DNA of 64,000 nt from Planctomycetota bacterium (lineage in GTDB: Bacteria > Planctomycetota > MHYJ01 > WSZJ01): positions 37,713 through 101,712 of the forward strand of contig JBBTCT010000005.1 in assembly GCA_038060895.1 (NCBI GenBank). The letters are read 5' to 3'. The stretch's first letter is position 1; every line of letters starts with the position of its first letter. Position numbers and translations under genes: made by a program. This document shows, piece after piece, positions 40,949-52,325 of this stretch. The notes under the pieces were generated by a model. The model did not search any database. It was not told the origin of the DNA and worked only from the letters and a program-made list of their open reading frames with translations.

Positions 40949-42349
40949 CTACCCACTACTCCCTGCGTCCTTCCCGATGTCCCCCAGCTTGTACTCCTTG
41001 ATCTTCCTGTAAAGCGTGCGCTCGCCAATCCCCAGAATCCTCGAAGCTTCCTCCCGGTTTCCCTTGGTCATTTCAAGCGTCGAGCGGATCAGCTCCGTCT
41101 CGGCGCGCTCGAGGCTCATCCCGGCGAACACGGCGGACGTGCCGGGCGCCGCCGTTTCGCGCCGCTGGGCAATCTCCTCCGGGATGTCCTTGACGTCCAG
41201 CACGGGCTCCCGCGCCAGCACCACCATGGCTTCGAGCGTGTTCCGCAGTTCCCGCACGTTCCCCGGCCAGCGGTACGCGAGAAGCGCGGCTCGCGCGGCC
41301 GGCGAGATCCCGTCGATGCGGCGGTTGTGCTGCTGGGAGAAATCGCGGATGAAGTGATCGATGAGGAGCGCGATGTCGGACTGGCGGGCGCGGAGAGGCG
41401 GGAGATTGATCATGACGACGCGCAGGCGGTAGTAGAGGTCCTCGCGGAACTTCCCTTCGCGCACCATCTCTTCCAGGTGCCTGTTCGTGCTCGCGATCAG
41501 GCGGACGTCCACGGGAATGGGCAGATTCGAACCGACCCGGTAAACGCACCGTTCCTCAAGGACGCGCAGGAGTTTCGCCTGCGTGGAAAGCGGCATGTCG
41601 CCGATCTCGTCGAGCAGGAGCGTCCCGTGGTTGGCGAATTCGAAGCGCCCCTTGCGCGCCCCGATGGCGCCGGTGAACGAGCCCTTCTCGTGCCCGAACA
41701 GCTCGGACTCGATCAGCCCTTCAGGCATCGCCGTGCAGTTGATGGGGATGAAATGGTGGTTGCGCCGCGGCGAATTCCGGTGGATCGCCTTCGCGACCAG
41801 TTCCTTTCCGGTTCCGCTTTCGCCGGTAATGAGGACGGTCGCCGAGGTCGGTGCAACCTGTTGAAGCGTGTTGAAGACCTTCTGCATTGCCTCGGAGTTT
41901 CCGATGATCCCGCCGAACCCGAACTTGCGGTCGAGTTCCTGGTGGAGAAACAGGTTTGAGCGCGAGAGATCCTGCTTCTCGACGACCTTCTCGATGACCG
42001 CGCGCAACTCGGCGATGTTGAGCGGCTTCTTCATGTAGGTCGAAGCGCCCTTTTTCATCGCCTCGACGGCGCTCTCGACGGAAGCGAAGCCGGTCATGAC
42101 GACGACCTCGATGTCCGGGTGAAGGCGCCGGGCGGTCGTGAGGATTTCCATCCCGTCGATGTCGCGCATGACCAGGTCGGTCAGCACGACATCCACGTGC
42201 TCGGACTCCAGAAGTTCGAGCGCGGCCTTCCCGCCGCCGGCGACGAGCGTGCGGTAGCCGGTCCGGCGGAGGGATTCCGCCATGGTTTCGGCGTGTTCGG
42301 GGTCGTCATCGACCACGAGGATCGTGACGTCGGTGGAAGTGGGGGTCAT
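40949..42349 (-). CDS. Sigma54-dependent response regulator (NtrC/AtoC family)
   Basis: Receiver, GESGTGKE, ESELFGHEKGSFTGA, LLLDEIG, FREDLYYRL, WPGNVREL, Fis HTH. Confidence 0.95.
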   Translation of the reverse strand: MTPTSTDVTILVVDDDPEHAETMAESLRRTGYRTLVAGGGKAALELLESEHVDVVLTDLVMRDIDGMEILTTARRLHPDIEVVVMTGFASVESAVEAMKKGASTYMKKPLNIAELRAVIEKVVEKQDLSRSNLFLHQELDRKFGFGGIIGNSEAMQKVFNTLQQVAPTSATVLITGESGTGKELVAKAIHRNSPRRNHHFIPINCTAMPEGLIESELFGHEKGSFTGAIGARKGRFEFANHGTLLLDEIGDMPLSTQAKLLRVLEERCVYRVGSNLPIPVDVRLIASTNRHLEEMVREGKFREDLYYRLRVVMINLPPLRARQSDIALLIDHFIRDFSQQHNRRIDGISPAARAALLAYRWPGNVRELRNTLEAMVVLAREPVLDVKDIPEEIAQRRETAAPGTSAVFAGMSLERAETELIRSTLEMTKGNREEASRILGIGERTLYRKIKEYKLGDIGKDAGSSG

Positions 42350-42379
42350 AGGCGGGGGGTTGGAAGGAGGGAAAGATTT

Positions 42380-42502
42380 AACCCCAACCCCAACTCCAAC
42401 TCCAAATTCCAACCTTCGATGAAAGGACCCGGTCCGTCAATGGCCACCCACTCAAGGAGTCGACCTCCCGATCGCCGAAATTGGGGTTGGGATCCGGAAT
42501 TG
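42380..42502. repeat. Intergenic CCAACC/CCAACT hexamer repeat with short inverted copy
   Basis: AACCCCAACCCCAACTCCAACTCCAAATTCC at 42380 and TTGGGGTTGGG at 42481; same unit as at 19737. Confidence 0.65.
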
Positions 42503-42506
42503 TCTT

Positions 42507-43235
42507 TCAAAGCGGTATGGCCCCTCCCGCCCTGGGCGCCAACTCGCCTTCAACCGGAAGCCGTATCGTAAAGCAACTCCCCTTCCCCTCCTCGCTCGTC
42601 ACTGTCAGCGTCCCGTCATGCTCGTGCACGATCCTCCTCGCCGTCGGCAACCCGAGCCCCGTCCCCGTCTTCTTCGTCGAGTAGTACACGTCGAAACACC
42701 TCGCCGCCGCCTCCGCCGACATCCCCGTCCCCGTATCGATCACGTCCAGCTGGGCGAAATCACGCCACCTGGCCGTCTTCAGGATCAGTTCCCCCCCGTT
42801 CGGCATCGCCTGGATCGCGTTCATGACGAGGTTGAGCAGGGCCTGCTTGAAGAGGTTTGCATCGACAGAAACCTTCGGAAGTTCGCCGAGCGACCTCAGG
42901 ACGCGGACTTTCTTCTGCGTCGCCTCCGGCGTGACGAAATCCAGCACTTCCCCGATCACCCGGTTCAGGTCGGTCGGGCGGTTGTCCAGTTTGTGGCCGG
43001 CGGCGAACCGGAGGAAGTCGTTGAGGATTTCCTCGAGACGGGCTGTTTCCTTGAGAAGGAGAGTGAGGCGCTGAAGCGCACGCCGCTCGCGTTCGTCGCG
43101 GGGCTCCTCGAAATCCTCCTGCAGCAGCTGCAGATTGGCCTGCAGAGTCGAGAGGGGGGTCCGGATCTCGTGCGCCAGCCCGGCGGCCAGCTGGCCGAGA
43201 AACGCGAGACGATCGCCTTCCTTGTTCTGAGACAC
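42507..43235 (-). CDS. Histidine kinase without sensor domain (HisKA + HATPase)
   Basis: LGQLAAGLAHEIRTPL starts at about residue 13; NLVMNA, DTGTG, GTGLGL; no TM. Confidence 0.88.
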   Translation of the reverse strand: MSQNKEGDRLAFLGQLAAGLAHEIRTPLSTLQANLQLLQEDFEEPRDERERRALQRLTLLLKETARLEEILNDFLRFAAGHKLDNRPTDLNRVIGEVLDFVTPEATQKKVRVLRSLGELPKVSVDANLFKQALLNLVMNAIQAMPNGGELILKTARWRDFAQLDVIDTGTGMSAEAAARCFDVYYSTKKTGTGLGLPTARRIVHEHDGTLTVTSEEGKGSCFTIRLPVEGELAPRAGGAIPL

Positions 43236-43317: not shown

Positions 43318-43346
43318 TTGAACATCGCCGATCAGGGGCATATACT
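43318..43346 (+). promoter_or_regulatory. Putative sigma70 promoter for the ESCRT-like locus
   Basis: TTGAAC-N17-TATACT, followed by GAGG and ATG at 43386. Confidence 0.6.
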
Positions 43347-43385: not shown

Positions 43386-45227
43386 ATGGCCGCCGACATC
43401 CAGGACTGGCTTTCCAATCGCGACATGTTCGCGCGCCGCGTCTCCTCGCACGAGGTGCTCGGCCTGCTGAAGCGGTCCTTCACGGTCCCCGCGCACACCA
43501 TCGCGGCGGTCGTGGAGAACGGCTCGCGGCGCGTGGCCAAGGGCGGTGAACAACTCAGCGGCCGCTTCGACGCCGTCCTCATCAAAACCCAGGAAATGCC
43601 GGTCGCCTTCCAGATGGCCGGGCTGCGCTCCAAGGACGGGTTCGGCATGAACGCCGGGGTCCGCCTCACGCTTCAGCTCGAATCCTACGAGCCCGATCGC
43701 GTCGAGGACTTCTGCCGGAACTTCACCGCGGCCAACGCGACCACGTCGTCGGAGGACCTGCGGTCGTACCTGGCGGTGGACGTGAAGCGCGCGCTGTCCG
43801 AGTACATTTCTTCGCACGAGGCGGCCGACCTCCAGAATTCCCAGGCGTCGTCCGACGTCGAAGGGGGGCTGCGAAGAGCGCTGGAAGGCCCGCTCTTCGG
43901 CAAGGGTCTCAACTTCCGGAAGCTCATGGAGCTCGAATTCCACAGCGACTCCTTTGAGAAGTCGCGCGACGAAGCGCGGAAGCAGAACGAGAAGATCCGT
44001 GAGCACGAGGGAGTTCTTCTCGACCAGCAGCGGCGCGAGGAGAAGCTGAAGAATCTCGCGGCGCTGATGAAGAGCGCGGACGCGCAGGAGGTCTTCAAGG
44101 AGATCCGCGACGAGCGCGTCAAGTCGCTGCTGTACGCGAAGCTCATGGAGAACGACCTGAAGGACCTCTCGAGCGAGGACCTGCGCGCGAAGCTGAACCA
44201 GTGGGGAGACGACCTGATCGGCGTCGTGCTCAAGGCTTACGCGGCGCTGGCGGAGGCGCCGGATGCGCCGGTGGAGCCCGGGAAGACCGGGAAGCTGGCG
44301 CGCGTCGTGGTCACGGCGGGATCGCGGGTGTTGCTGTTCAATCCCGTCGATTTCACCGGCTCGTGCCGGCTGATCGACGCGGGATTCAACCTGCGCAGCG
44401 CGAGAATTCATCCCTGGAAAGGGCGCGGTCTGATTTTCGCGGGTGGAAAGCGGCAGATTTCGGCGATCGACCCGGAGACCACGCAGTCCGTCGCCGCGTA
44501 CCCGCTTCCCCAGGAGAAAAAACCCAAGGGCGGCGTGAATGCTTCGGCGGTCTGGAAGCACCGGATGTTCGCGACGCACAGCGAGCTGGGGCTGATCGAG
44601 TGGGACCTGAACAGGCCGGGCGTTCCGGGAGTGACGATCAACGCCGACCTGACGGCACTTTCCGCGACGGTGCGGGCCGCGGTGACGACCGCGGACGGAT
44701 GGCTGTATTTCGCGAGCGGACGGACGGTGTACGGGATGGACCTGGAAAAGGGAACGCCTCCGGTCGCGTTCGGGCCGCAGACGCCGAGCGGCGTGACGGC
44801 GCTGGCGGTCGGCGAGCGGCTGATCGTGGCGGGGTGCGGAAGCGGGAACGAGGGCGCGTTGTCGATATGGGACCGGCGCGATCCGTCGCGCGCCGTCGGC
44901 GTGATCCGCAGGAATGCGCCGATCGGGAGCGTGCGCCTGACGTCGATCGGAGGCGTGCCGCACATGCTGTTCACGTGCCGCGACCACGGCGTCACGGCGC
45001 GCGTGATCGGGCAGACTCTTGAGACCCACTACGATGCGGGCGAGCACTCCGTGATCCTCGCCGAGGGCGGCTCCGATCATGTCGTCGCCATCGACCACAA
45101 CGGGCGCTTCCTCATCGCCTGGGACGCCGCGCGCCCTGCGAAGCCGCGGAAGATCCTGGACCTGAACGCGTACACGGACCAGGCGGTGTACGACCTGGCG
45201 CCTGTTTTCGGGGAGGGCGGCGCGTGA
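43386..45227 (+). CDS. SPFH/band-7-like domain + coiled coil + WD40-like beta-propeller
   Basis: TVPAHTIAAVVENG, LRSKDGF....V.LTLQL, L..KGLNF (band-7 pattern); charged helix; beta repeats e.g. VTALAVGERLIVAG...LSIWD. Confidence 0.65.
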   Translation: MAADIQDWLSNRDMFARRVSSHEVLGLLKRSFTVPAHTIAAVVENGSRRVAKGGEQLSGRFDAVLIKTQEMPVAFQMAGLRSKDGFGMNAGVRLTLQLESYEPDRVEDFCRNFTAANATTSSEDLRSYLAVDVKRALSEYISSHEAADLQNSQASSDVEGGLRRALEGPLFGKGLNFRKLMELEFHSDSFEKSRDEARKQNEKIREHEGVLLDQQRREEKLKNLAALMKSADAQEVFKEIRDERVKSLLYAKLMENDLKDLSSEDLRAKLNQWGDDLIGVVLKAYAALAEAPDAPVEPGKTGKLARVVVTAGSRVLLFNPVDFTGSCRLIDAGFNLRSARIHPWKGRGLIFAGGKRQISAIDPETTQSVAAYPLPQEKKPKGGVNASAVWKHRMFATHSELGLIEWDLNRPGVPGVTINADLTALSATVRAAVTTADGWLYFASGRTVYGMDLEKGTPPVAFGPQTPSGVTALAVGERLIVAGCGSGNEGALSIWDRRDPSRAVGVIRRNAPIGSVRLTSIGGVPHMLFTCRDHGVTARVIGQTLETHYDAGEHSVILAEGGSDHVVAIDHNGRFLIAWDAARPAKPRKILDLNAYTDQAVYDLAPVFGEGGA

Positions 45228-46249
45228 GCGACGGCGCGGGGACGTGCGCGGCCTGCGGGCGGACGTATCTGTCGCGAGTCGGGATTTTTCGCGATGACGC
45301 GGCGTGCGCGACGTGCGGCAAGCCGATCTGCGCGGCGTGCTGGAGCGACAAGACCACGTTCTGCCAGGAGCACGAGGACGTACCGGTGGCGACGCTGGCC
45401 GACGCGCCGAAACCCGGGGACATCCCCACGGGGCAGGTGCCGGCAGGGTCGATCAGCCGCCAGTCGGCTCGCGAAATGGAAGAGGGATTCCTTTCGCGGG
45501 TGAGGAAGAACTTCCGCCAGCTCGCGGGGATTTACAACCCGCTGGATGGCCGCTGGTACGACGTCATCGAGCGAAATACGGGCGAGTACGTCGTCGACCT
45601 GGGGGCCGAGGCCGCGAAAAACGCGGTTCGCGATCGCGCGAAATCGGGCTTCAACGAAATCCTCGCTTCGATGCCCACCAACCGCGCCGCCGTCTGCGAC
45701 GTCTTCGCGCGGGACTTTCTCGGCGCGAAAGTGAAGAAGATCTGCCTCGCCGGGGTGTCGCTCTCCCCGCTCGACGAACTCGTAAAGCCGGGCTGGTCGA
45801 GCCAGCCGCTCGGGTACGCGGCGGTTGCCCAGGCCCAGCGGCGCATCGTCACGGATCCGGGCGTCTTCTATTACCTCTGCTATTTCGCGACGACGGGCTG
45901 GTCCGGAGAAGCGCGCGACATCCTCGCGAACGGGCCGAATTTCGTCTCGTGCCTCGTCGAAAAGCAGGCGGATTCGTGGCGCATCACCGCGAAGGACGAC
46001 GGCCGATGGGGCGATGCGCTGGCGGTGTACGACCTGGAGACGTACTCGGAGAAGCGCGACCGGGTGCAAATTTTCGTGAAGCGGCACACGTACGAGCTGC
46101 TGATGGACCGTTTGAGCGACCGGTATGTGTGCGAGAAGACGGGGCTGCCGCTGGACGTCGTGAGGGCGTCATTCCGGGATCTTTCGCAGGATCCGTTTGT
46201 GCACCTGACGGCGGATGAGGAGCAGTTCCGGATATCGCGGGTTTACTGA
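45224..46249 (+). CDS. Zn-finger protein with probable C-terminal winged helix
   Basis: CAACG...CATCGKPICAACW...FCQEH; alpha/beta middle (FATTGWS); tail LSDRYVCEKTGLPLDVVRASFRDL followed by a beta hairpin. GTGA coupling to the upstream gene. Confidence 0.6.
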   Translation: MSDGAGTCAACGRTYLSRVGIFRDDAACATCGKPICAACWSDKTTFCQEHEDVPVATLADAPKPGDIPTGQVPAGSISRQSAREMEEGFLSRVRKNFRQLAGIYNPLDGRWYDVIERNTGEYVVDLGAEAAKNAVRDRAKSGFNEILASMPTNRAAVCDVFARDFLGAKVKKICLAGVSLSPLDELVKPGWSSQPLGYAAVAQAQRRIVTDPGVFYYLCYFATTGWSGEARDILANGPNFVSCLVEKQADSWRITAKDDGRWGDALAVYDLETYSEKRDRVQIFVKRHTYELLMDRLSDRYVCEKTGLPLDVVRASFRDLSQDPFVHLTADEEQFRISRVY

Positions 46250-46269: not shown

Positions 46270-46373
46270 AATTCTGAATATCGAATATCTAATATCGAAT
46301 TCTGAATGAACGGCACCCTTCAAACGATGTCGTTCATTCATGATTCAATATTAGATATTCGATATTCAAAATT
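46270..46373. repeat. AT-rich imperfect 46-bp inverted repeat of AATATCG-like heptamers
   Basis: Arms 46270-46315 and 46328-46373 with about 5 differences. Confidence 0.8.
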
Positions 46374-46468: not shown

Positions 46469-47170
46469 ATGATCCTCGACAAGATCAAGAAGCTGATGGG
46501 CCTCGGCTCGATCCCCGACGAGGTCGCCCCGATCTACAAGGGCGCCAAGTCGGAACGCGAGGCTCTCGAACTCCTCCGCGACGCCCGCCGCCGCGACGAG
46601 GACCGCCGTAACCGCGCCCTCGAGGACGTCGAAATCCTCCAGGGCAAGGAAGGCGAGCTCATGGAGGAGGGCAAGCGCGAAACCGACCAGAACCGCCGGC
46701 TCTCCCTCGCCCGCAAGATCAAGGACGTCCGCTGGAAGGTCGAGGAGATCGAAACCAAGGTCGAAAACATCTTCAACAAGCGCATCCGCATCTACAAAGA
46801 ACACGTCGCGTCGCTCGAAACCCTCGTCGCGCTCGCGGAAGAGCCGCTTCCGTCGTCCAAGCAGCTGGAAGACGCGGCGATCAAGGCGAAAGAGAAGCGC
46901 GAGGACCTGGACAAGACCGTCGCGATGGCGGAGGGAATGTCGCTCGACAAGAACGCGGAGCCGGTGCTGGACGAAGAAGAGAAGTCGATTCTGGCGGAGT
47001 TCGAGAAGCACGATGACTCCAAGCTGGAGCAGGACGAGCTGGCCGCGCTGACGAAGCAGAGGCCGGAAGACGAGTTCGCGAAGCTGGAGAAGACGGCGCG
47101 CAAGAAGGAGCGGCCGTCGAAAGAAGCGCCGAAGAAGCAGGCTGAGTCAGAAGAGGAGGAGCTCGAATGA
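46469..47170 (+). CDS. ESCRT-III/Snf7-like coiled-coil protein 1
   Basis: 233 aa all-helical, amphipathic N helix MILDKIKKLMG, basic hairpin, DEEEKSILAEFEK helix, acidic tail. Confidence 0.65.
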   Translation: MILDKIKKLMGLGSIPDEVAPIYKGAKSEREALELLRDARRRDEDRRNRALEDVEILQGKEGELMEEGKRETDQNRRLSLARKIKDVRWKVEEIETKVENIFNKRIRIYKEHVASLETLVALAEEPLPSSKQLEDAAIKAKEKREDLDKTVAMAEGMSLDKNAEPVLDEEEKSILAEFEKHDDSKLEQDELAALTKQRPEDEFAKLEKTARKKERPSKEAPKKQAESEEEELE

Positions 47171-47832
47171 GCGCGGCCAGCGACATGATGGACTGGCTGT
47201 TCAAGCGGCGCCGCCGCATCACGGACTTCAAGCCGGAGGAGTTGCGGCGCGAGGAAAAGCGGCTGGAGATCCGTGAAAACCAGCTCGTGGCGCAGCAGGA
47301 AAAACTCGACCGCGAGAAGGAAGACATCTTCCAGCAGGGCGTGAAGAACAAATCGGTCGTGCGCCGGCGGATGTACGCGCGGCGCTTCAATGATCTGATG
47401 AGCCGCCTGCGGCTGATGGACCGCGAGCTGTCGCGGGTTTCGAAAGAGGTGATGACGCTGTCGCGGATCCGCGCGCTGGTGGAACGCACGAAGAGCCCGA
47501 AGTCTGTCACCGGAATCCTGAACAAACTGACGGATTCCAATCTCGACGAACTGCAGGCGCTGCTGGAAGACGACAAGATCGGCGAAGAGTTCTACCTGCA
47601 GAAGCTGGACATGCTTCTGGGCGTGGCCAACGACCCCGCGTACGACGCGACCGAGATCGGATCCGAGGGGATGGAAGTCCTCAAGACGTGGGAGGCGATG
47701 GACGAGGGGGAGATGGAGTTCGACGAAGGCCTGAAACAGGCTGAAACGGGGATCAAGGAACGCGGAGAGGGACGCAAAGAAAAGCCGCAGCACGAGAAGG
47801 AGAAGGACGAGGAGCAGGAGGAGGCCACCTAG
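47167..47832 (+). CDS. ESCRT-III/Snf7-like coiled-coil protein 2
   Basis: 221 aa, MMDWLFKRRRR, basic N half and acidic C half; paralog of the next gene; ATGA coupling. Confidence 0.65.
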   Translation: MSAASDMMDWLFKRRRRITDFKPEELRREEKRLEIRENQLVAQQEKLDREKEDIFQQGVKNKSVVRRRMYARRFNDLMSRLRLMDRELSRVSKEVMTLSRIRALVERTKSPKSVTGILNKLTDSNLDELQALLEDDKIGEEFYLQKLDMLLGVANDPAYDATEIGSEGMEVLKTWEAMDEGEMEFDEGLKQAETGIKERGEGRKEKPQHEKEKDEEQEEAT

Positions 47833-48441
47833 ATGAGCCTGATCGACCTTTTCAAGCGGCCGAAGCGGATGGCCGACCTGAAGCTGGAGGAAGTGAGACG
47901 GGAAGAAGCCCGCCTTTCGCTGCGCGAGACGCAGGCGATTGCGCGGCTCGAGCAGATGGAGCGCGACAAGGAGGAGATTTTCCGCAAGGGGACGAAGATA
48001 AAGTCCGGCATCAGGCGGAAACAGCTCGCCCGCCAGTTCGAGCAGAAGAAGAACGAGATCGCGATTTCAGAGCGCGAGCTGAACCGGCTCGGCAAGGAAG
48101 CGGTGACGATCGCGGCGATCCGGACGGCCATCCAGCGCAAGACGGACATGAAGAAGAGCGTGCTGTCGATCCTGAACCTGGCCGAGGAAGGAGAGCTGCA
48201 GCGACTCCTCGAGGACGACAAGATTTCGTACGACCTCTACATGGAGCGCCTCGGCGAAATCGCCGACACCGCCAACGATCCTTCGAGGGACATCATCAGC
48301 GAGGTCGGCAAGGAAGGGGCCGAGCTCCTCGACATCTGGCAGAAGATGGACGACGGCGAGATCGAGTCGTTCGACACGGGGTTGAAACTCGCGGAAGAAA
48401 AAGCCAGGGAGAAGCCGCTGCCTGAAGAAGAAACAGAGTGA
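47833..48441 (+). CDS. ESCRT-III/Snf7-like coiled-coil protein 3
   Basis: 202 aa, MSLIDLFKR, shares RREE.RL..RE.Q, KE.IF..G, LLEDDKI, ANDP, W..MD.GE..FD.GLK with protein 2. Confidence 0.65.
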   Translation: MSLIDLFKRPKRMADLKLEEVRREEARLSLRETQAIARLEQMERDKEEIFRKGTKIKSGIRRKQLARQFEQKKNEIAISERELNRLGKEAVTIAAIRTAIQRKTDMKKSVLSILNLAEEGELQRLLEDDKISYDLYMERLGEIADTANDPSRDIISEVGKEGAELLDIWQKMDDGEIESFDTGLKLAEEKAREKPLPEEETE

Positions 48442-48448
48442 TCCTGCG

Positions 48449-48940
48449 ATGAGAGTGGCGACGAGCGGCGACCCGACCGTGGCGATGTGGGCGGCGCAGC
48501 GTTACGACCCCGCGTCGGCGCTTCGAACGGCCTGGGGGAAACTGTTCCGCATCGTGGCGTGGTGCACGGCGGCGCCCTCATTCGGGCTGCTCGCATGGAG
48601 CACCATCGCATACGCGCGCCTCGACGGGCCTTCGGGTCTCCAGACGCTCGGCTACTTCCTGAACGACTACGTCGCCGCGTGCGGCGTCGGGCTCGCCGCG
48701 CTTTTCGCGTCGATCGCACTCCCCCGCCTCCGGCGCCGCGACGTGCCGATGCTCTTCGGCGGGTGCGCGGCCGCCATCCTGCTCCTTTACCTGCCGAGTC
48801 TCTTCAACGCCTGGCCCGTGCTGCGCGAGAAGAAAATGCCCGCCACTGCCGTCGTCCCGCTGGCTTTCCCGTTCGCGCTCCTCTCGATCGCGGCTGCGGC
48901 CGCGGTGCTGGCGAAGCGCCCCAGGCCAAGGGCGGCGTAA
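48449..48940 (+). CDS. Small integral membrane protein (about 4 TM)
   Basis: Four hydrophobic segments; 7 nt after the previous gene and 3 nt before the ATPase. Confidence 0.65.
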   Translation: MRVATSGDPTVAMWAAQRYDPASALRTAWGKLFRIVAWCTAAPSFGLLAWSTIAYARLDGPSGLQTLGYFLNDYVAACGVGLAALFASIALPRLRRRDVPMLFGGCAAAILLLYLPSLFNAWPVLREKKMPATAVVPLAFPFALLSIAAAAAVLAKRPRPRAA

Positions 48941-48943
48941 ACC

Positions 48944-50167
48944 ATGGACCTCTACACGCCCATCAAGCAGGCGCTGACGAAAGCCAAGGAACTCTACGAG
49001 GCGCGCGAGCACGACAAGGCCGCCGCTTCCTACGACAAGGCCGCTTCCCTCATGTCGATCTACGCCGAGCAGGCGATCGGGCGCGACGCGGAGATGAGGC
49101 GGCGCAAGAAGGCGGTGGAGTACCGCGAGATCGCCAAGAAGCTGCGCAGCGGCGAGATTGAAGCGCCCGGCGCGAAAGACGACCGCGATGACAATGGAAG
49201 CGCCGCACCGGCGGCGGCCGCCGCGGAAGGCAAGCAGGCAAAAGCCGCCGGCGAGGTCAAGGCGGCCGTGCTCTCGCTGATCAAGACCTCTTCGATCGGC
49301 TGGGGAGACATCGGCGGACTGGAGCCGACAAAGGAAGAAATCAAGTTTGCGCTCGGGATCACTCTGGCGAAGCAGCCGGCGAACGTGCAGCTCTCGGCCT
49401 GGACGAACATCCTGTTCTACGGACCGCCCGGGACCGGGAAGACGCTTCTCGCCGCCGCGACGTCGCACGCGATCCGGAACTCGGACGACATCCAGGCGGT
49501 GTTTTTCAACGTGAAGGTGTCGTCGATCCTCTCGAAGTACTTCGGCGAGTCGTCGAAGATCATCAGCGAGCTCTACGGCACGGCCCGTGACACGTCGCCG
49601 GCCGTCATCTTCCTCGACGAATTTGAGTCGGTCGCTGGGAAGCGCGACGACCAGGACTCGGGGCCGGAGCGGCGGATCATGTCGACGCTGCTTTCCGAGC
49701 TGGACGGGATGGAGGCGAAGGGGCGCCGGGACATCTACGTGCTGACGATTGCGGCGACGAACCGGCCGTGGGATCTCGACCCCGCGGTGCTGAGCCGGTT
49801 TGAGAAGAAGATCCTGATTCCGCTTCCGGACATGGTCGCGCGGCGTGAAATCCTGAGGATCCACCTCGACAAGCGCGGCTTCCAGGTGAACGCGGACGCC
49901 GCGCAACTGGCCACCGCGACGGAGGGGTACAGCGGGCGCGAGATCGAGCGGCTGTGCAAGGAGGTCACCACGCGGATGGTGGCGGAGATGAACCGGGAGA
50001 TTCCGGGGCTGATCGACAAGGGGCTGGACACGGTGAGGACCTACCAGCTCAAAGTGAGGCCGCTGGGAATGGGGGATTTCCAGAAAGCGATCGCGAAGCT
50101 CCATCCGCAGACGACGGCGGCCGACGTGAAGAAGTACAACGAGTGGAGAGAGGCGCAAGTGGAGTAA
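48944..50167 (+). CDS. MIT-domain AAA+ ATPase, Vps4/CdvC-like
   Basis: Three-helix N domain (A..YDKAA...KKAVEYREIAKKL), WGDIGGLE..K, GPPGTGKT, pore loop SKYFGES, IFLDE, ATNRPWDLD.AVLSRFEKKILIPLPD, GYSG, C-terminal helix TAADVKKYNEW. Confidence 0.85.
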   Translation: MDLYTPIKQALTKAKELYEAREHDKAAASYDKAASLMSIYAEQAIGRDAEMRRRKKAVEYREIAKKLRSGEIEAPGAKDDRDDNGSAAPAAAAAEGKQAKAAGEVKAAVLSLIKTSSIGWGDIGGLEPTKEEIKFALGITLAKQPANVQLSAWTNILFYGPPGTGKTLLAAATSHAIRNSDDIQAVFFNVKVSSILSKYFGESSKIISELYGTARDTSPAVIFLDEFESVAGKRDDQDSGPERRIMSTLLSELDGMEAKGRRDIYVLTIAATNRPWDLDPAVLSRFEKKILIPLPDMVARREILRIHLDKRGFQVNADAAQLATATEGYSGREIERLCKEVTTRMVAEMNREIPGLIDKGLDTVRTYQLKVRPLGMGDFQKAIAKLHPQTTAADVKKYNEWREAQVE

Positions 50168-50315: not shown

Positions 50316-50912
50316 ATGGGCATCTTCAAGTCCCGCGAAGAAAAACGCATCGAACGCGACCTCGAGGTCCGCAAGGGCATCGCTTCCATCAAGCGCAACC
50401 TCAAGGACATGGATAAGCACACGAAGGAATACATCGACAAGGCCAAGAAGGCCAAGCGCATCGGCGACAACGACCAGCTCAAATTCATCAAGAGCGCTCT
50501 CAAGAAAACCGCTCTCGGCAAGAAGATGCGCGAGCGCCAGCTCCTCTCGCTCGAGACCGCCATGCAGATCAAAAACCAGGCGGAGTCCGACGGCGAATTC
50601 GCCCGGGCGATGATGGAAGTCTCCAAGTCGATCTCCGAGGTCTACGGCTCCACCGACCTGGCCAAGACCCAGAAGAATTTCGAACGCGCCATGATGCAGG
50701 CCGAAACGCTGCAGGACCGCATGCAGATCGTCGTCGAGTCCATGTCCGACACGCTCTCGACCTCCGACGAGGACGCCGAGAAGATCCTCAGCGACAAGGA
50801 CATAGACAAGATGATCGACGACGAAGCGGTACACGAGGAGAAGGGCGAGCTGGACAAGGAGATCGAGAAGGGGCTGAAGGAGATCGAAGAGGAGATGGGG
50901 AAGGAGTCCTGA
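50316..50912 (+). CDS. ESCRT-III protein, Vps2/Vps24/Did2 (CHMP1-3)/CdvB-like
   Basis: MGIFK..., KAKKAKRIGD.DQLK, ARAMMEVSKSI, KNFERAM, SMSDTL, DIDKMIDDE, C-terminal DKEIEKGLKEI (MIM1-like). Confidence 0.75.
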   Translation: MGIFKSREEKRIERDLEVRKGIASIKRNLKDMDKHTKEYIDKAKKAKRIGDNDQLKFIKSALKKTALGKKMRERQLLSLETAMQIKNQAESDGEFARAMMEVSKSISEVYGSTDLAKTQKNFERAMMQAETLQDRMQIVVESMSDTLSTSDEDAEKILSDKDIDKMIDDEAVHEEKGELDKEIEKGLKEIEEEMGKES

Positions 50913-50984
50913 AGTATGTAGGAAGTGGCCTTTTTGGACGGGGATGAGGGATTTTCGAAGCTCAGAGCGAGCGCGAGAGTGACT

Positions 50985-52325
50985 ATGCCAGAACCATGGG
51001 AAGCAAAATGGCGGCTGATCCGTTCAATCGGAGAGGGTGGCCAAGGGGTTACCCACCTCGTTTCCGACAGGGCAGAGCCCTGCCGCATGGGCGCACTCAA
51101 ATTGCTGAAAAACAACAAAAGCAGCGAAGCACGAACGCGGATGCTTCAAGAAGTGACGAATCTTCAAGTCGTCCACACTCAGAAGGGGCGAGTTCCGGAC
51201 GTGCTCGATTCCAATGTTCAGTTCCACGCCGAGAACGTTCCTCTCTACTTTGTCATGGAGTACGTCGACGGCGTAACCCTGACCAAGCGAGTGAGGGAGT
51301 GCGGCGCCCTATCTGTTCAGGACTCGTTGAGCCTGTGTCTCTCGATCTGCAGAACGCTAGAGATCGCGCACCGGTTCAGCATTCAGCACCGCGATTTGAA
51401 ACCGGACAATGTACTGATTCCGACCTCGCGTCCCGCGGAACCCATCCTTGTTGACTTCGGGCTCTCCTTCAATGAAGAAGACCACGACTCGGTCACGAGA
51501 ACCAACGAGACGATTCAGAATCGGTTTCTAGCTCTCCCAGAACTTCGGGTACCTGGCGCGTCAAAACGCGACACCCGCTCCGATGTGACTGCAGTGTGCG
51601 GAATGCTCTACTTTTGCCTGACCGGATTCGAGCCCGTTGACTTGAGTGACGGGTCTGGCAGAGCCCCTCACCGCAGACCTGTTCCTCACGGCTTCCCGGT
51701 CGAATTGCAGAAGTCTCAACTGGCTGCGCTGTTCGACCGAGGATTTCAGATTGATATTGGAAACAGATTTCAGTCGATCGAAGAACTCATTCAGAGGGTT
51801 CTGCACGTTCAGAGTGATGCGCCCGACAAATCGGTCGACCTGGTTGAGAAGGCAAGGGTGGCGAGTTCAGAGCTTCGCCGAAGAAGTAGCAAGCGCCGAG
51901 CCGCAGTCTTTCAGACTTGCGTTGGAGTCTTTGGGGCAAAGCTAGCCGACTTTGTCCAACGACTGAACGGCACCATCGCCGACTTCTCAGTAAGCCACGG
52001 ATCAAAGACACCCGGAATGCCACTGCCAGCTGGAAGTGTTCAGATTCTCGACGTGAGCCACTCAGTAACGTTGAGCTTGAAGGGTCATCAAAACTCCTGT
52101 TCCTTTATCTACAACTGCGCGCTCGAGGAAAACCAGATGGTCCTACTTCGAAGTCGGCTTAGATACGGAATTCCTGATCCTTGGAATCCCCCTTCTGAGA
52201 ATTGGGAACGGGTCGCATATTTCCCCACGCCAGAAGAACTTGATTTCGCTCCGATCGAAGCGGATCTCAGATCGACACTTGCGTTTGGGATGGAACTCAT
52301 GGTCGACAAGCTCGGAGATGCCTAG
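50985..52325 (+). CDS. Ser/Thr protein kinase (soluble, atypical codon usage)
   Basis: IGEGGQG, ALK, VMEYVDG, HRDLKPDN, DFG, LPE, SDV. Confidence 0.9.
   Translation: MPEPWEAKWRLIRSIGEGGQGVTHLVSDRAEPCRMGALKLLKNNKSSEARTRMLQEVTNLQVVHTQKGRVPDVLDSNVQFHAENVPLYFVMEYVDGVTLTKRVRECGALSVQDSLSLCLSICRTLEIAHRFSIQHRDLKPDNVLIPTSRPAEPILVDFGLSFNEEDHDSVTRTNETIQNRFLALPELRVPGASKRDTRSDVTAVCGMLYFCLTGFEPVDLSDGSGRAPHRRPVPHGFPVELQKSQLAALFDRGFQIDIGNRFQSIEELIQRVLHVQSDAPDKSVDLVEKARVASSELRRRSSKRRAAVFQTCVGVFGAKLADFVQRLNGTIADFSVSHGSKTPGMPLPAGSVQILDVSHSVTLSLKGHQNSCSFIYNCALEENQMVLLRSRLRYGIPDPWNPPSENWERVAYFPTPEELDFAPIEADLRSTLAFGMELMVDKLGDA

Follow-up and report, generated by a model that had tools for sequence, protein, structure and literature searches.

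A gene pair encoding an SPFH-like/WD40-like propeller protein and a zinc-finger/winged-helix protein, linked to ESCRT-III-like and Vps4-like genes in Planctomycetota

SPFH and winged-helix partners of ESCRT-III-type polymers

Archaeal Meth_adaptin ESCRT loci are reported to encode a protein combining SPFH, coiled-coil and zinc-ribbon parts (Makarova et al. 2024, PMC11188069/PMC10936438), and arCOG09748, from the archaeal ‘Main’-clade ESCRT, is described there as a globular middle of no known fold with a winged helix at its C-terminus; its gene accompanies those of Vps4 and ESCRT-III and often lies near Ser/Thr kinases (PMC11188069). According to that source, the winged helix of ESCRT-II (Vps22, Vps25) and CdvB mediates the partner contact by which ESCRT-III polymer is recruited, and contacts between SPFH proteins and ESCRT-0 are reported for eukaryotes. 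In bacteria, Band-7/PspA operons are known and the flotillin-like YdjI of Bacillus subtilis reportedly brings PspA to the membrane (PMC11188069 and PMC11237479); the latter also describes bacterial Vps4-like transfers in which a TPR/6TM gene takes the place of snf7 (Ravi et al. 2024), and PspA operons with tandem AAA genes, in which a two-ring AAA is used. Homologues of ESCRT components are said to be ‘not identifiable’ in bacteria in the abstract of the 2024 survey (PMC11188069), and a Vps4-like ATPase appears absent from them according to a 2025 review (PMC7619361).

The present locus lies in a stretch of 64,000 nucleotides from a Planctomycetota bacterium (the window), and its genes are the following:

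g1, 43386-45227, + strand: ATG start, 613 aa; soluble SPFH-like/coiled-coil/seven-bladed WD40-like propeller protein
g2, 45224-46249, + strand: GTG start, 341 aa; zinc finger/novel alpha-beta core/winged helix
E3a, 46469-47170, + strand: putative ESCRT-III-like helical gene
E3b, 47167-47832, + strand: putative ESCRT-III-like helical gene
E3c, 47833-48441, + strand: putative ESCRT-III-like helical gene
Vps4-like AAA ATPase, 48944-50167, + strand: Pfam AAA and Vps4_C
E3d, 50316-50912, + strand: Snf7-family ESCRT-III protein

On the best reading, g1 and g2 find their closest parallels in the SPFH and winged-helix partners encoded in archaeal ESCRT loci. Like the Meth_adaptin protein, g1 has an SPFH part followed by a coiled coil and is encoded beside Vps4 and ESCRT-III genes, although, compared by description, it is bacterial, has a seven-bladed WD40-like propeller instead of the zinc ribbon, and bears an SPFH part too divergent for Pfam. 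Compared in the same way, arCOG09748 and g2 share one plan, a central globular domain and a C-terminal winged helix. YdjI is likewise an SPFH protein genetically coupled to a polymer of the ESCRT-III superfamily, and its reported way of placing PspA is the mechanism that we propose for g1; however, SPFH proteins of its type have a membrane anchor and act with PspA where no Vps4-type ATPase takes part, whereas g1 has no transmembrane (TM) segment and its locus partners are a Vps4-like ATPase and proteins of Snf7 type. The transfers and PspA operons of PMC11237479 also pair polymer or Vps4-like genes with accessory proteins, but they have neither an SPFH-propeller nor a finger-core-winged-helix protein, and the present locus has Snf7-family genes. 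We found no description of the g1-g2 pair or of this ESCRT-like operon in the literature outside subscription journals; g1 and g2 are real genes, previously undescribed. The reading towards which we lean is that they are dedicated, co-inherited accessory subunits, analogues and not homologues of upstream ESCRT factors, in a membrane-remodelling system of Snf7/Vps4 type held by a minority of Planctomycetota.

Domain composition of g1 and g2

The two genes had been described in an earlier note as coupled, and indeed both are real reading frames on the same strand, overlapping by 4 nt (GTGA start/stop). The start of g1 at 43386 is backed by the lengths of its homologues (587-623 aa, with a query coverage of 98-100% in 16 of 17). 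Its product is divided as follows:

g1 residues 1-186, 43386-43943, + strand: divergent SPFH (Band 7)-like alpha/beta domain, on transitive sequence evidence
g1 residues 188-290, 43947-44255, + strand: long charged helices, a coiled-coil-like linker in a low-confidence part of the model
g1 residues 300-611, 44283-45218, + strand: seven-bladed beta-propeller, 28 strands

The WD40-like repeats claimed in that note correspond to a propeller of seven four-stranded blades, for which WD40 propellers were matched both by structure and by profile, and which holds an invariant T-H-S-E-x-G...W motif (residues 397-406). Its coiled coil is also recovered as helices, even if with low model confidence (pLDDT 36-59 between roughly residues 210 and 300); the stretch 188-295 includes 24 acidic and 20 basic side chains. 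The band-7-like part is recognised in the family and its relatives rather than directly in the window's own g1, which has no Pfam match (for Band_7, none at E<=1). Band_7 (PF01145) was matched in 11 of 18 aligned family members (best E 1.9e-5), its cut-off (23.6 bits) was exceeded by eight of the 11 distant relatives retrieved with the g1 profile, an orthologue from the family f63 reaches 25.7 bits, and hhalign aligned residues 63-179 of g1 with 29 planctomycete SPFH domains (Prob 70%, E 4e-5). On this sequence evidence, SPFH membership is likely by transitive homology; the matches in full-length fold searches with g1 all came from the propeller.

Members of the SPFH/Band 7 family usually bear an N-terminal membrane anchor, either a TM segment or a hairpin. 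Such an anchor was not seen in g1 on the Kyte-Doolittle scale, which agrees with the earlier claim that it lacks a TM segment: by this measure neither g1 nor g2 has one, the maximum 19-residue values being 1.11 and 1.12 (no 19-residue segment of g1 exceeds 1.6), while the TM protein encoded nearby reaches 2.25. We propose that the SPFH and coiled-coil parts would let g1 assemble into oligomers and form a scaffold close to the membrane, in the manner of other SPFH proteins. The conserved face of the propeller would serve as a docking site by which the polymer is localised or organised, and, because g1 has no membrane anchor, it would reach the membrane via a partner or an amphipathic element.

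The product of g2 comprises three parts:

g2 residues 1-51, 45224-45376, + strand: eight-ligand Cys/His finger, CxxC...CxxC-x4-CxxC-x7-CxxH
g2 residues 79-270, 45458-46033, + strand: alpha/beta core without a Pfam family
g2 residues 272-341, 46037-46246, + strand: C-terminal winged helix

This bears out the multi-Cys/His finger, the alpha/beta core and the C-terminal helix-turn-helix module that had been read from the sequence, the last two in a model with a pLDDT of 91.4. The finger ligands (C8, C11, C28, C31, C36, C39, C47 and H50) are conserved in the clade of the source DNA and invariant in 24 relatives fused to a helix-turn-helix (HTH) domain, and the finger is absent from most of the distant planctomycete orthologues. 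The core is a new domain family without a Pfam model, with 195 representatives at E<=0.001 and many fusion partners; E86, P106 and P151 are invariant across 43 relatives, and G225, in a TTGW motif, nearly so. Foldseek found nothing for g2 in the PDB at E<=0.001, the VIA rows for g2 are filled by its winged helix, with core and finger barely probed there, and an ESM Atlas feature search with the core reached 0.87 at best, in Bathyarchaeota clusters, which serves as a lead only; the Atlas contains no structure of g2 or E3b.

Are g1 and g2 then true, highly diverged homologues of ESCRT-0/I/II, with a FYVE domain from Vps27/Hrs and a winged helix from Vps22/25/36? The basic motif by which FYVE domains bind PI3P is R(R/K)HHCR, and it was not seen in residues 1-51 of g2 when the sequence was read by eye. 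A weak match of g2 to FYVE (PF01363, E 0.0059) and the eukaryotic contacts between SPFH proteins and ESCRT-0, as reported in PMC11188069, would be in favour of this homology, but the FYVE score stays under the Pfam cut-off (17.1 against 27.8 bits), and the finger gave only weak C1/IBR/ribbon matches among PDB profiles (E 0.008 or worse). Nor do the winged helices of ESCRT-II (Vps25, Vps22, Vps36) stand above generic ones: their rows rank 29 and 50 for g2, below many unrelated winged helices, and g2 has a single winged helix, not the tandem of the ESCRT-II core. At E<=0.1, Pfam gave no VHS, UIM, UEV, Vps28 or Vps37 domain in g1 or g2, the EAP30 and Vps25 families were equally missing from its matches, and PDB sequence-profile searches with either protein matched no chain of an ESCRT component. 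The sub-cut-off FYVE, the low-ranked single winged helix and the lack of ESCRT families disfavour true homology, which we hold to be very improbable.

As an analogue, g2 would couple to the first ESCRT-III-like subunit via its core/winged-helix module and would thereby control where or when polymerisation starts; we infer for both proteins a role as adaptors or recruiters.

Linkage to the ESCRT-like genes and vertical appearance of the system

Pfam and PDB sequence searches gave no match for E3a, E3b or E3c, which by profile resemble neither Snf7 nor PspA in sequence. When the profiles of E3a, E3b/c and E3d were aligned by hhalign with 11 planctomycete PspA sequences and with one another, Prob stayed at 12.7% or less, and the Atlas lead for E3a-c is a look-alike cluster (score 0.93) with Snf7 in 16% of its members. 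For E3d, 11 of 15 orthologues match Snf7 (PF03357) at E<=1; three of these exceed the 27.3-bit cut-off (30.8, 28.5 and 27.7), and the window's copy has E 0.15. The ATPase matches AAA (E 1.5e-34) and Vps4_C (28.7 bits against a cut-off of 21.3), as well as the CdvC model (3.8e-49, below that model's cut-off), with no Pfam match to an MIT domain. In the genome of the window (86.5% complete) there was no PspA at E<=1e-10 and no match to FtsZ/tubulin, and a 1284-aa gene beside the genome's own AAA2 bears no relation to the STK-TPR gene found in the locus L010. The host organisms have complex inner membranes.

The linkage is tight and broad. Among loci from Planctomycetota metagenome-assembled genomes (MAGs) with room for the comparison, g2 follows g1 in 23/23 and E3a follows g2 in 21/21, and the co-occurrence with the Vps4-like gene that the earlier note had proposed to check is seen in 15 of the 16 that reach far enough; L010 has g1, g2, E3a and E3b with no Vps4-like gene within 8.7 kb downstream. 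In a sample of 401 Planctomycetota genomes, g1 was found in 80, g2 in 73 and E3d in 74, all three in 67 (union 84). Homologues living mostly apart from ESCRT-like genes would have spoken against the proposal, and the contrary was observed, E3d accompanying g1 in 72 of 80 genomes and g2 in 68 of 73. A second order (g2, E3, E3, Vps4, E3d, second AAA, g1) occurs in 8 of 12 regions from other families, so that the linkage survives rearrangement with the g2-to-E3 adjacency kept, g2 standing directly before an ESCRT-III-like gene in both planctomycete orders. The idea that the pair heads the locus holds in the clade of the source DNA only; in other Planctomycetota families the cluster ends with g1. 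In the family f63 the g1-like genes lie some 730 kb from the g2-like/E3d cluster, and in one genome (G027) they are on different contigs. Each genome has a single copy, and some families have the complete system in all their members (g1 and g2 present in 3/3 genomes of f1 and 6/6 of f37), so that the distribution looks vertical and not patchy.

The linkage of g2 to ESCRT-like genes extends to its distant HTH-fused relatives, found in metagenome loci whose source may be bacterial or archaeal. Of the 31 loci with room, 18 have the start of an ESCRT-III-like gene no more than 500 nt downstream, at least one of the E3-like, Vps4-like and SPFH-like genes is present in 23 of 31, and none of the ESCRT-like genes in the other 8 of these 31 informative loci. 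Vps4-like and SPFH/zinc-ribbon genes are often carried as well, the relatives retrieved there with the g1 profile being double zinc-ribbon, Band_7 and coiled-coil proteins, an architecture described for the Meth_adaptin loci.

A different view of the cluster is that of an anti-phage conflict system, in which g2 would detect foreign nucleic acid by means of the finger, the winged helix and a core like that of restriction endonucleases, and the ESCRT-III-like/Vps4 part would repair or sacrifice the membrane. The g2 module also occurs joined to subtilase, CHAT and Ser/Thr kinase domains, all of them frequent in conflict systems, Ser/Thr kinases adjoin many of the loci, and a PD-T4-6-type kinase (E 1.6e-99) lies directly 3' of E3d. 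Nevertheless, that kinase is a recent insertion: its GC3 (0.60) deviates from that of its neighbours (0.85-0.89) and a 96%-identical relative lacks it. Furthermore, no PADLOC model matches g1, g2, E3a-d or the TM protein (the ATPase meets only generic AAA models), and in a PD-(D/E)XK comparison the putative nuclease-site residues of the core are not conserved across the 43 relatives, where E86, P106 and P151 alone are invariant. A viral fold library gave only two matches for g2, without names and at TM 0.23-0.31, the locus neighbours are genes of housekeeping type, and the single copy and within-family completeness fit a vertical inheritance. We consider a conflict system distinctly unlikely.

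Control region, the regulatory alternative and implications

Around the pair, the following elements were found:

promoter-like site TTGAAC-17-TATACT, 43318-43346, + strand: weak (9/12 match), 40 nt before the g1 start
inverted repeat, 46270-46373, + strand: 51-nt arms of short tandem units, 86% complementary
divergent cytoplasmic histidine kinase, 42507-43235, - strand: from Pfam
sigma54-type response regulator, 40949-42412, - strand: from Pfam

The near-consensus sigma70 promoter once ascribed to the locus does not hold, since only nine of 12 positions match and such sites number 2 in 10.2 kb, little above the 1.3 +/- 1.1 expected from shuffles. Sigma54-type sites (<=2 mismatches) are absent near g1 and E3a, the window containing 16 against 17.5 expected. 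Pfam recognises the histidine kinase and the sigma54-type regulator in the window and in L010; genes of matching size and place, judged by these two features, are present in L004, L008 and L009. The inverted repeat sits in the 219-nt gap between g2 and E3a and folds into a hairpin (MFE -60.7 kcal/mol, z -9.6), a candidate attenuator, stabiliser or operator, for which Rfam returned only a plant miRNA match below threshold (39 bits against 100) on this AT-rich element.

These elements bear on a serious rival, serious because relatives carry HTH, kinase or protease fusions: that g2 is mainly a regulator or sensor, whose finger and winged helix bind DNA or whose core senses the state of the polymer, tuning operon expression or activity in a PspF/PspA-like feedback, while g1 could still be a scaffold. 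The module occurs with HTH, MerR, subtilase, CHAT and Ser/Thr kinase domains, and the coupling of one module to outputs as different as HTH, kinase and protease is typical of a sensor domain; most of the distant relatives have an N-terminal excisionase-type HTH_17 or a MerR HTH before the same finger-core-winged-helix module, and a long palindromic element stands directly after g2. On the other hand, the window's g2 has no HTH_17, the finger is missing from most of the distant planctomycete orthologues, and the locus already has the kinase/sigma54-regulator pair upstream. The intergenic hairpins of close relatives occupy the same place with unrelated sequence in L002, L004 and L008 and are missing in two of five (L005 and L007), therefore fitting a conserved operator poorly, and winged helices also make protein contacts in ESCRT-II and CdvB, as described in PMC11188069. 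All in all, a mainly regulatory g2 seems to us rather doubtful, and the accessory-subunit reading stays the preferred one.

What would such subunits mean for their hosts? A tentative, wider reading, which we regard as possible but well short of probable, is that FtsZ-less Planctomycetota have a complete, vertically inherited ESCRT-like pathway with its own upstream layer, in which a soluble SPFH-WD40 protein would form cages and a finger/winged-helix protein would act as nucleator. This layer would share ancestry with the archaeal SPFH and winged-helix partners, and the pathway would carry out the scission of membranes, for instance when cells divide by budding, when vesicles form or when intracytoplasmic membranes are remodelled. 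If this were true, the early-acting logic of ESCRT, and not just the polymer, would be present in bacteria. In this conserved planctomycete operon, a gene of the Snf7 family and an ATPase with a Vps4_C domain stand together with two partners of their own, and, if g1 and g2 position or trigger the polymer, they would give a handle on how ESCRT-III-type polymers are targeted outside eukaryotes.

Linkage of g1 and g2 to a Snf7/Vps4-type gene set

The comparison across genomes shows that the SPFH-like/coiled-coil/propeller gene (g1) and the finger/core/winged-helix gene (g2) consistently accompany a Snf7/Vps4-type gene set. As the earlier note had it, the two are coupled, lying on one strand with the g2 start overlapping the g1 stop (GTGA).

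Features of the window
40949-43235, - strand: histidine kinase and sigma54-activator response regulator pair, divergent from g1
43318-43346: promoter-like site, TTGAAC-17-TATACT, 9/12 consensus match
43386-45227, + strand: g1, ATG start, 613 aa
45224-46249, + strand: g2, GTG start, 341 aa
46270-46373: inverted repeat in the gap between g2 and E3a, the first ESCRT-III-like gene
48449-48940, + strand: multi-TM protein, 163 aa, between E3c and the ATPase
50925-52325, + strand: Ser/Thr kinase, PD-T4-6 (PADLOC E 1.6e-99), directly after E3d

The 613-aa form of g1 was taken because its 17 homologues are 587-623 aa long and 16 of them span 98-100% of it; the longer in-frame ORF from 42618, which runs over the opposite-strand histidine-kinase gene, was rejected. 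To call the sigma70 promoter near-consensus was an overstatement, because the site matches at 9 of 12 positions and 10.2 kb contained two sites of that kind where chance alone would give 1.3. A search for sigma54-type promoters turned up nothing close to g1 or E3a. The upstream histidine kinase is cytoplasmic (HisKA and HATPase_c, no sensor domain seen); the kinase/sigma54-regulator pair is Pfam-confirmed in the related locus L010, and L004, L008 and L009 have similarly sized genes in that position.

A pattern scan with one genome per species gave 25 loci, 24 labelled as Planctomycetota-type and one labelled Polarisedimenticolaceae (Acidobacteriota). By tblastn, g1 is followed by g2 in 23/23 loci with room for it (two contigs stop short), g2 by E3a in 21/21 with room, and 15 of the 16 loci long enough to show it have a Vps4-like gene, L010 being the exception; the arrangement holds down to 29-39% g1 identity. 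Across 401 evenly sampled Planctomycetota genomes, many of them incomplete and with counts inflated by relatedness, profiles matched g1 in 80, g2 in 73 and E3d, the fourth ESCRT-III-like gene, in 74 (84 in union, all three in 67). Far from occurring mostly apart from ESCRT-like genes, g1 accompanies E3d in 72 of its 80 genomes and g2 in 68 of its 73.

That the pair heads the locus is true of the window's clade only, because other families place g1 last or far off: the order g2, E3, E3, Vps4, E3d, second Vps4_C-bearing AAA, g1 was seen in 8 of 12 regions, g1 lies on a separate contig in one genome (G027), and in family f63 g1-like genes are distant from the g2-like/E3d cluster (~730 kb in G131). 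The g2-to-E3 adjacency is retained in every locus where it is visible.

L010 has g1, g2, E3a and E3b, and the Vps4-like gene and E3d are absent downstream. Large genes of the kinase-TPR type were also found in L008, next to the cluster, and in L018, within it. A second AAA ATPase with Vps4_C, shorter than the first and ~32-35% identical to it, is present in most other clades.

Features in other loci
L010 13111-19874: pair of unnamed genes and TPR-repeat Ser/Thr kinase of 1292 aa, in place of Vps4-like and E3d
L015 17541-18692; L016 12452-13738; L021 9517-10638: second Vps4_C AAA
L023 17485-18612; L024 6722-7849; L090 9387-10541: second Vps4_C AAA
G000:C15:137782-138933 (window's genome, other contig): best match to the second AAA, 48% identical to the L090 copy
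L002 6108-6263; L004 12884-12988; L008 12894-12977: inverted repeat between g2 and E3a

The window's genome (86.5% complete) gave no match to the FtsZ/tubulin family (PF00091) and none to PspA at E<=1e-10; PspA was found in 10 of 41 sampled Planctomycetota.

Domain composition of the two proteins

Domains in the models
g1 1-186: alpha/beta domain
g1 188-290: helices, low confidence from ~210
g1 304-608: 28 propeller strands
g2 1-51: finger
g2 52-66: disordered linker
g2 79-270: alpha/beta core
g2 272-341: winged helix

Pfam, NCBIfam and PADLOC leave g1 unnamed. In its AlphaFold model (18-sequence alignment, mean pLDDT 82.5) the 28 strands make seven blades, and the propeller identity of the WD40-like repeats is solid, with PDB sequence-profile matches to Ika8 (3.5e-19) and FBXW proteins (~1e-6) and a Foldseek E of 4e-12 (7bid, TMt 0.81, rmsd 3.2). 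The motif T-H-S-E-x-G...W is invariant at residues 397-406, on the conserved propeller face. No hydrophobic segment was found in g1, in agreement with the stated lack of a TM. The band-7-like domain and coiled coil held in part: helices are modelled, and the window's own copy has no Band_7 match. Through its relatives the N-terminal domain appears SPFH-like, on transitive evidence: Band_7 matches 11 of 18 aligned family members (best E 1.9e-5), an hhalign comparison of residues 1-300 with 29 planctomycete SPFH domains reaches Prob 70% and E 4e-5 over residues 63-179, and 8 of 11 more distant relatives recovered by the g1 profile, together with the f63 orthologue, score above the Pfam Band_7 cut-off.

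The multi-Cys/His finger of g2 is confirmed by eight ligands (C8, C11, C28, C31, C36, C39, C47, H50) conserved in the window's clade and all invariant in 24 distant relatives. A FYVE identity is not upheld (17.1 bits, cut-off 27.8), and PDB-profile matches are to C1, IBR and ribbon fingers at E 0.008 or worse. The core and C-terminal helix-turn-helix with hairpin described from sequence are recovered in the model (43 sequences, pLDDT 91.4, pTM 0.75). No convincing fold match to the core was obtained, Foldseek giving MspJI/AspBHI at E 0.02-0.05; MspJI and AF1548 we take to share the restriction-endonuclease-like fold. Across 43 relatives, only E86, P106 and P151 of the core are invariant.

Downstream genes and the wider g2 family

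Three helical genes of ~200 aa each (E3a, E3b, E3c) follow g2, then the TM protein, an AAA ATPase with Vps4_C above the Pfam cut-off, and the helical E3d. PF03357 matches 11 of 15 E3d orthologues at E<=1, with three passing the gathering score and the window copy at E 0.15; judged by sequence, E3d is Snf7-family. Sequence comparison does not connect E3a-c with Snf7 or PspA, and the only hints are two weak Snf7 matches among 21 scanned relatives and one Atlas lead; their ESCRT-III fold is putative.

By tblastn, the TM protein is limited to the window's close clade (L002, L004, L005, L007, L008) and was not seen in more distant loci. The window and three of five close relatives have the inverted repeat, with arms of 41-66 nt and short tandem units; its letters differ in each genome, so position and shape are kept and sequence is not. 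The window copy folds with an MFE of -60.7 kcal/mol (z -9.6), and Rfam gave it only a below-threshold match to a plant miRNA family.

The PD-T4-6 kinase has a GC3 of 0.60 against 0.85-0.89 in its neighbours, is missing at the same spot in the 96%-identical relative L002, and appears to have been inserted recently between E3d and an amine oxidase gene. A defence role for the cluster is improbable, because g1, g2 and the E3 proteins draw no PADLOC match, the distribution within families is complete, and this kinase seems to be a recent insert.

The wider g2 family numbered 195 representatives at E<=0.001 in a full HMMER pass, and in none of 83 scanned does any Pfam family cover the core; the finger/core/winged-helix proteins are a new family. 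Many carry HTH_17, MerR, subtilase, CHAT or Ser/Thr kinase domains ahead of the same module. Fusion to HTH, kinase and protease domains would suit a module with either of two functions, binding of the polymer or sensing of the same signal, and this makes g2 as a regulator or sensor the main rival reading, rather unlikely in itself and still ahead of defence. For the HTH_17-fused form, 55 metagenome loci were obtained and 47 scanned, 42 of which have the fused gene, and in 31 of those at least 600 nt of sequence follow it. Of these 31, 18 have the start of an ESCRT-III-like gene no more than 500 nt beyond the fused gene, and 23 have at least one ESCRT-III-like, Vps4-like or g1-N-terminal-type gene; the other eight have none of the three, a kinase coming next instead in several. 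Vps4-like genes (40-47% identity) occur in 13/42 loci and g1 N-terminal profile matches in 9/42.

A putative adaptor pair

The earlier note took g1 and g2 for stand-ins for ESCRT-0/I/II. As a putative adaptor system, g1 would form an SPFH/coiled-coil oligomer close to the membrane, its conserved propeller face may dock a partner, and the g2 core/winged-helix module would engage the ESCRT-III-like subunit of the adjacent gene, thereby setting the place or time at which assembly starts.

Among known systems, the closest parallels come from archaeal ESCRT loci, with their SPFH and winged-helix partners (PMC11188069), and from the flotillin-PspA link in Bacillus (PMC11188069, PMC11237479). Makarova et al. 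(PMC11188069) describe archaeal Meth_adaptin ESCRT loci with a zinc-ribbon, SPFH and coiled-coil protein, by that description the same architecture as the SPFH-type proteins of the metagenome loci (double zinc-ribbon, Band_7, coiled coil). Points of difference here are the bacterial host, the fusion of the g1 propeller to an anchor-less SPFH-like domain, and the new family to which g2 belongs. A literature search found no published description of the operon, and papers outside its coverage may exist; ESCRT component homologues are reported as not identifiable in bacteria (PMC11188069) and a Vps4-like ATPase is reportedly absent from them (PMC7619361). The g1/g2 finding matters mostly through the ESCRT-like system to which the two genes belong.
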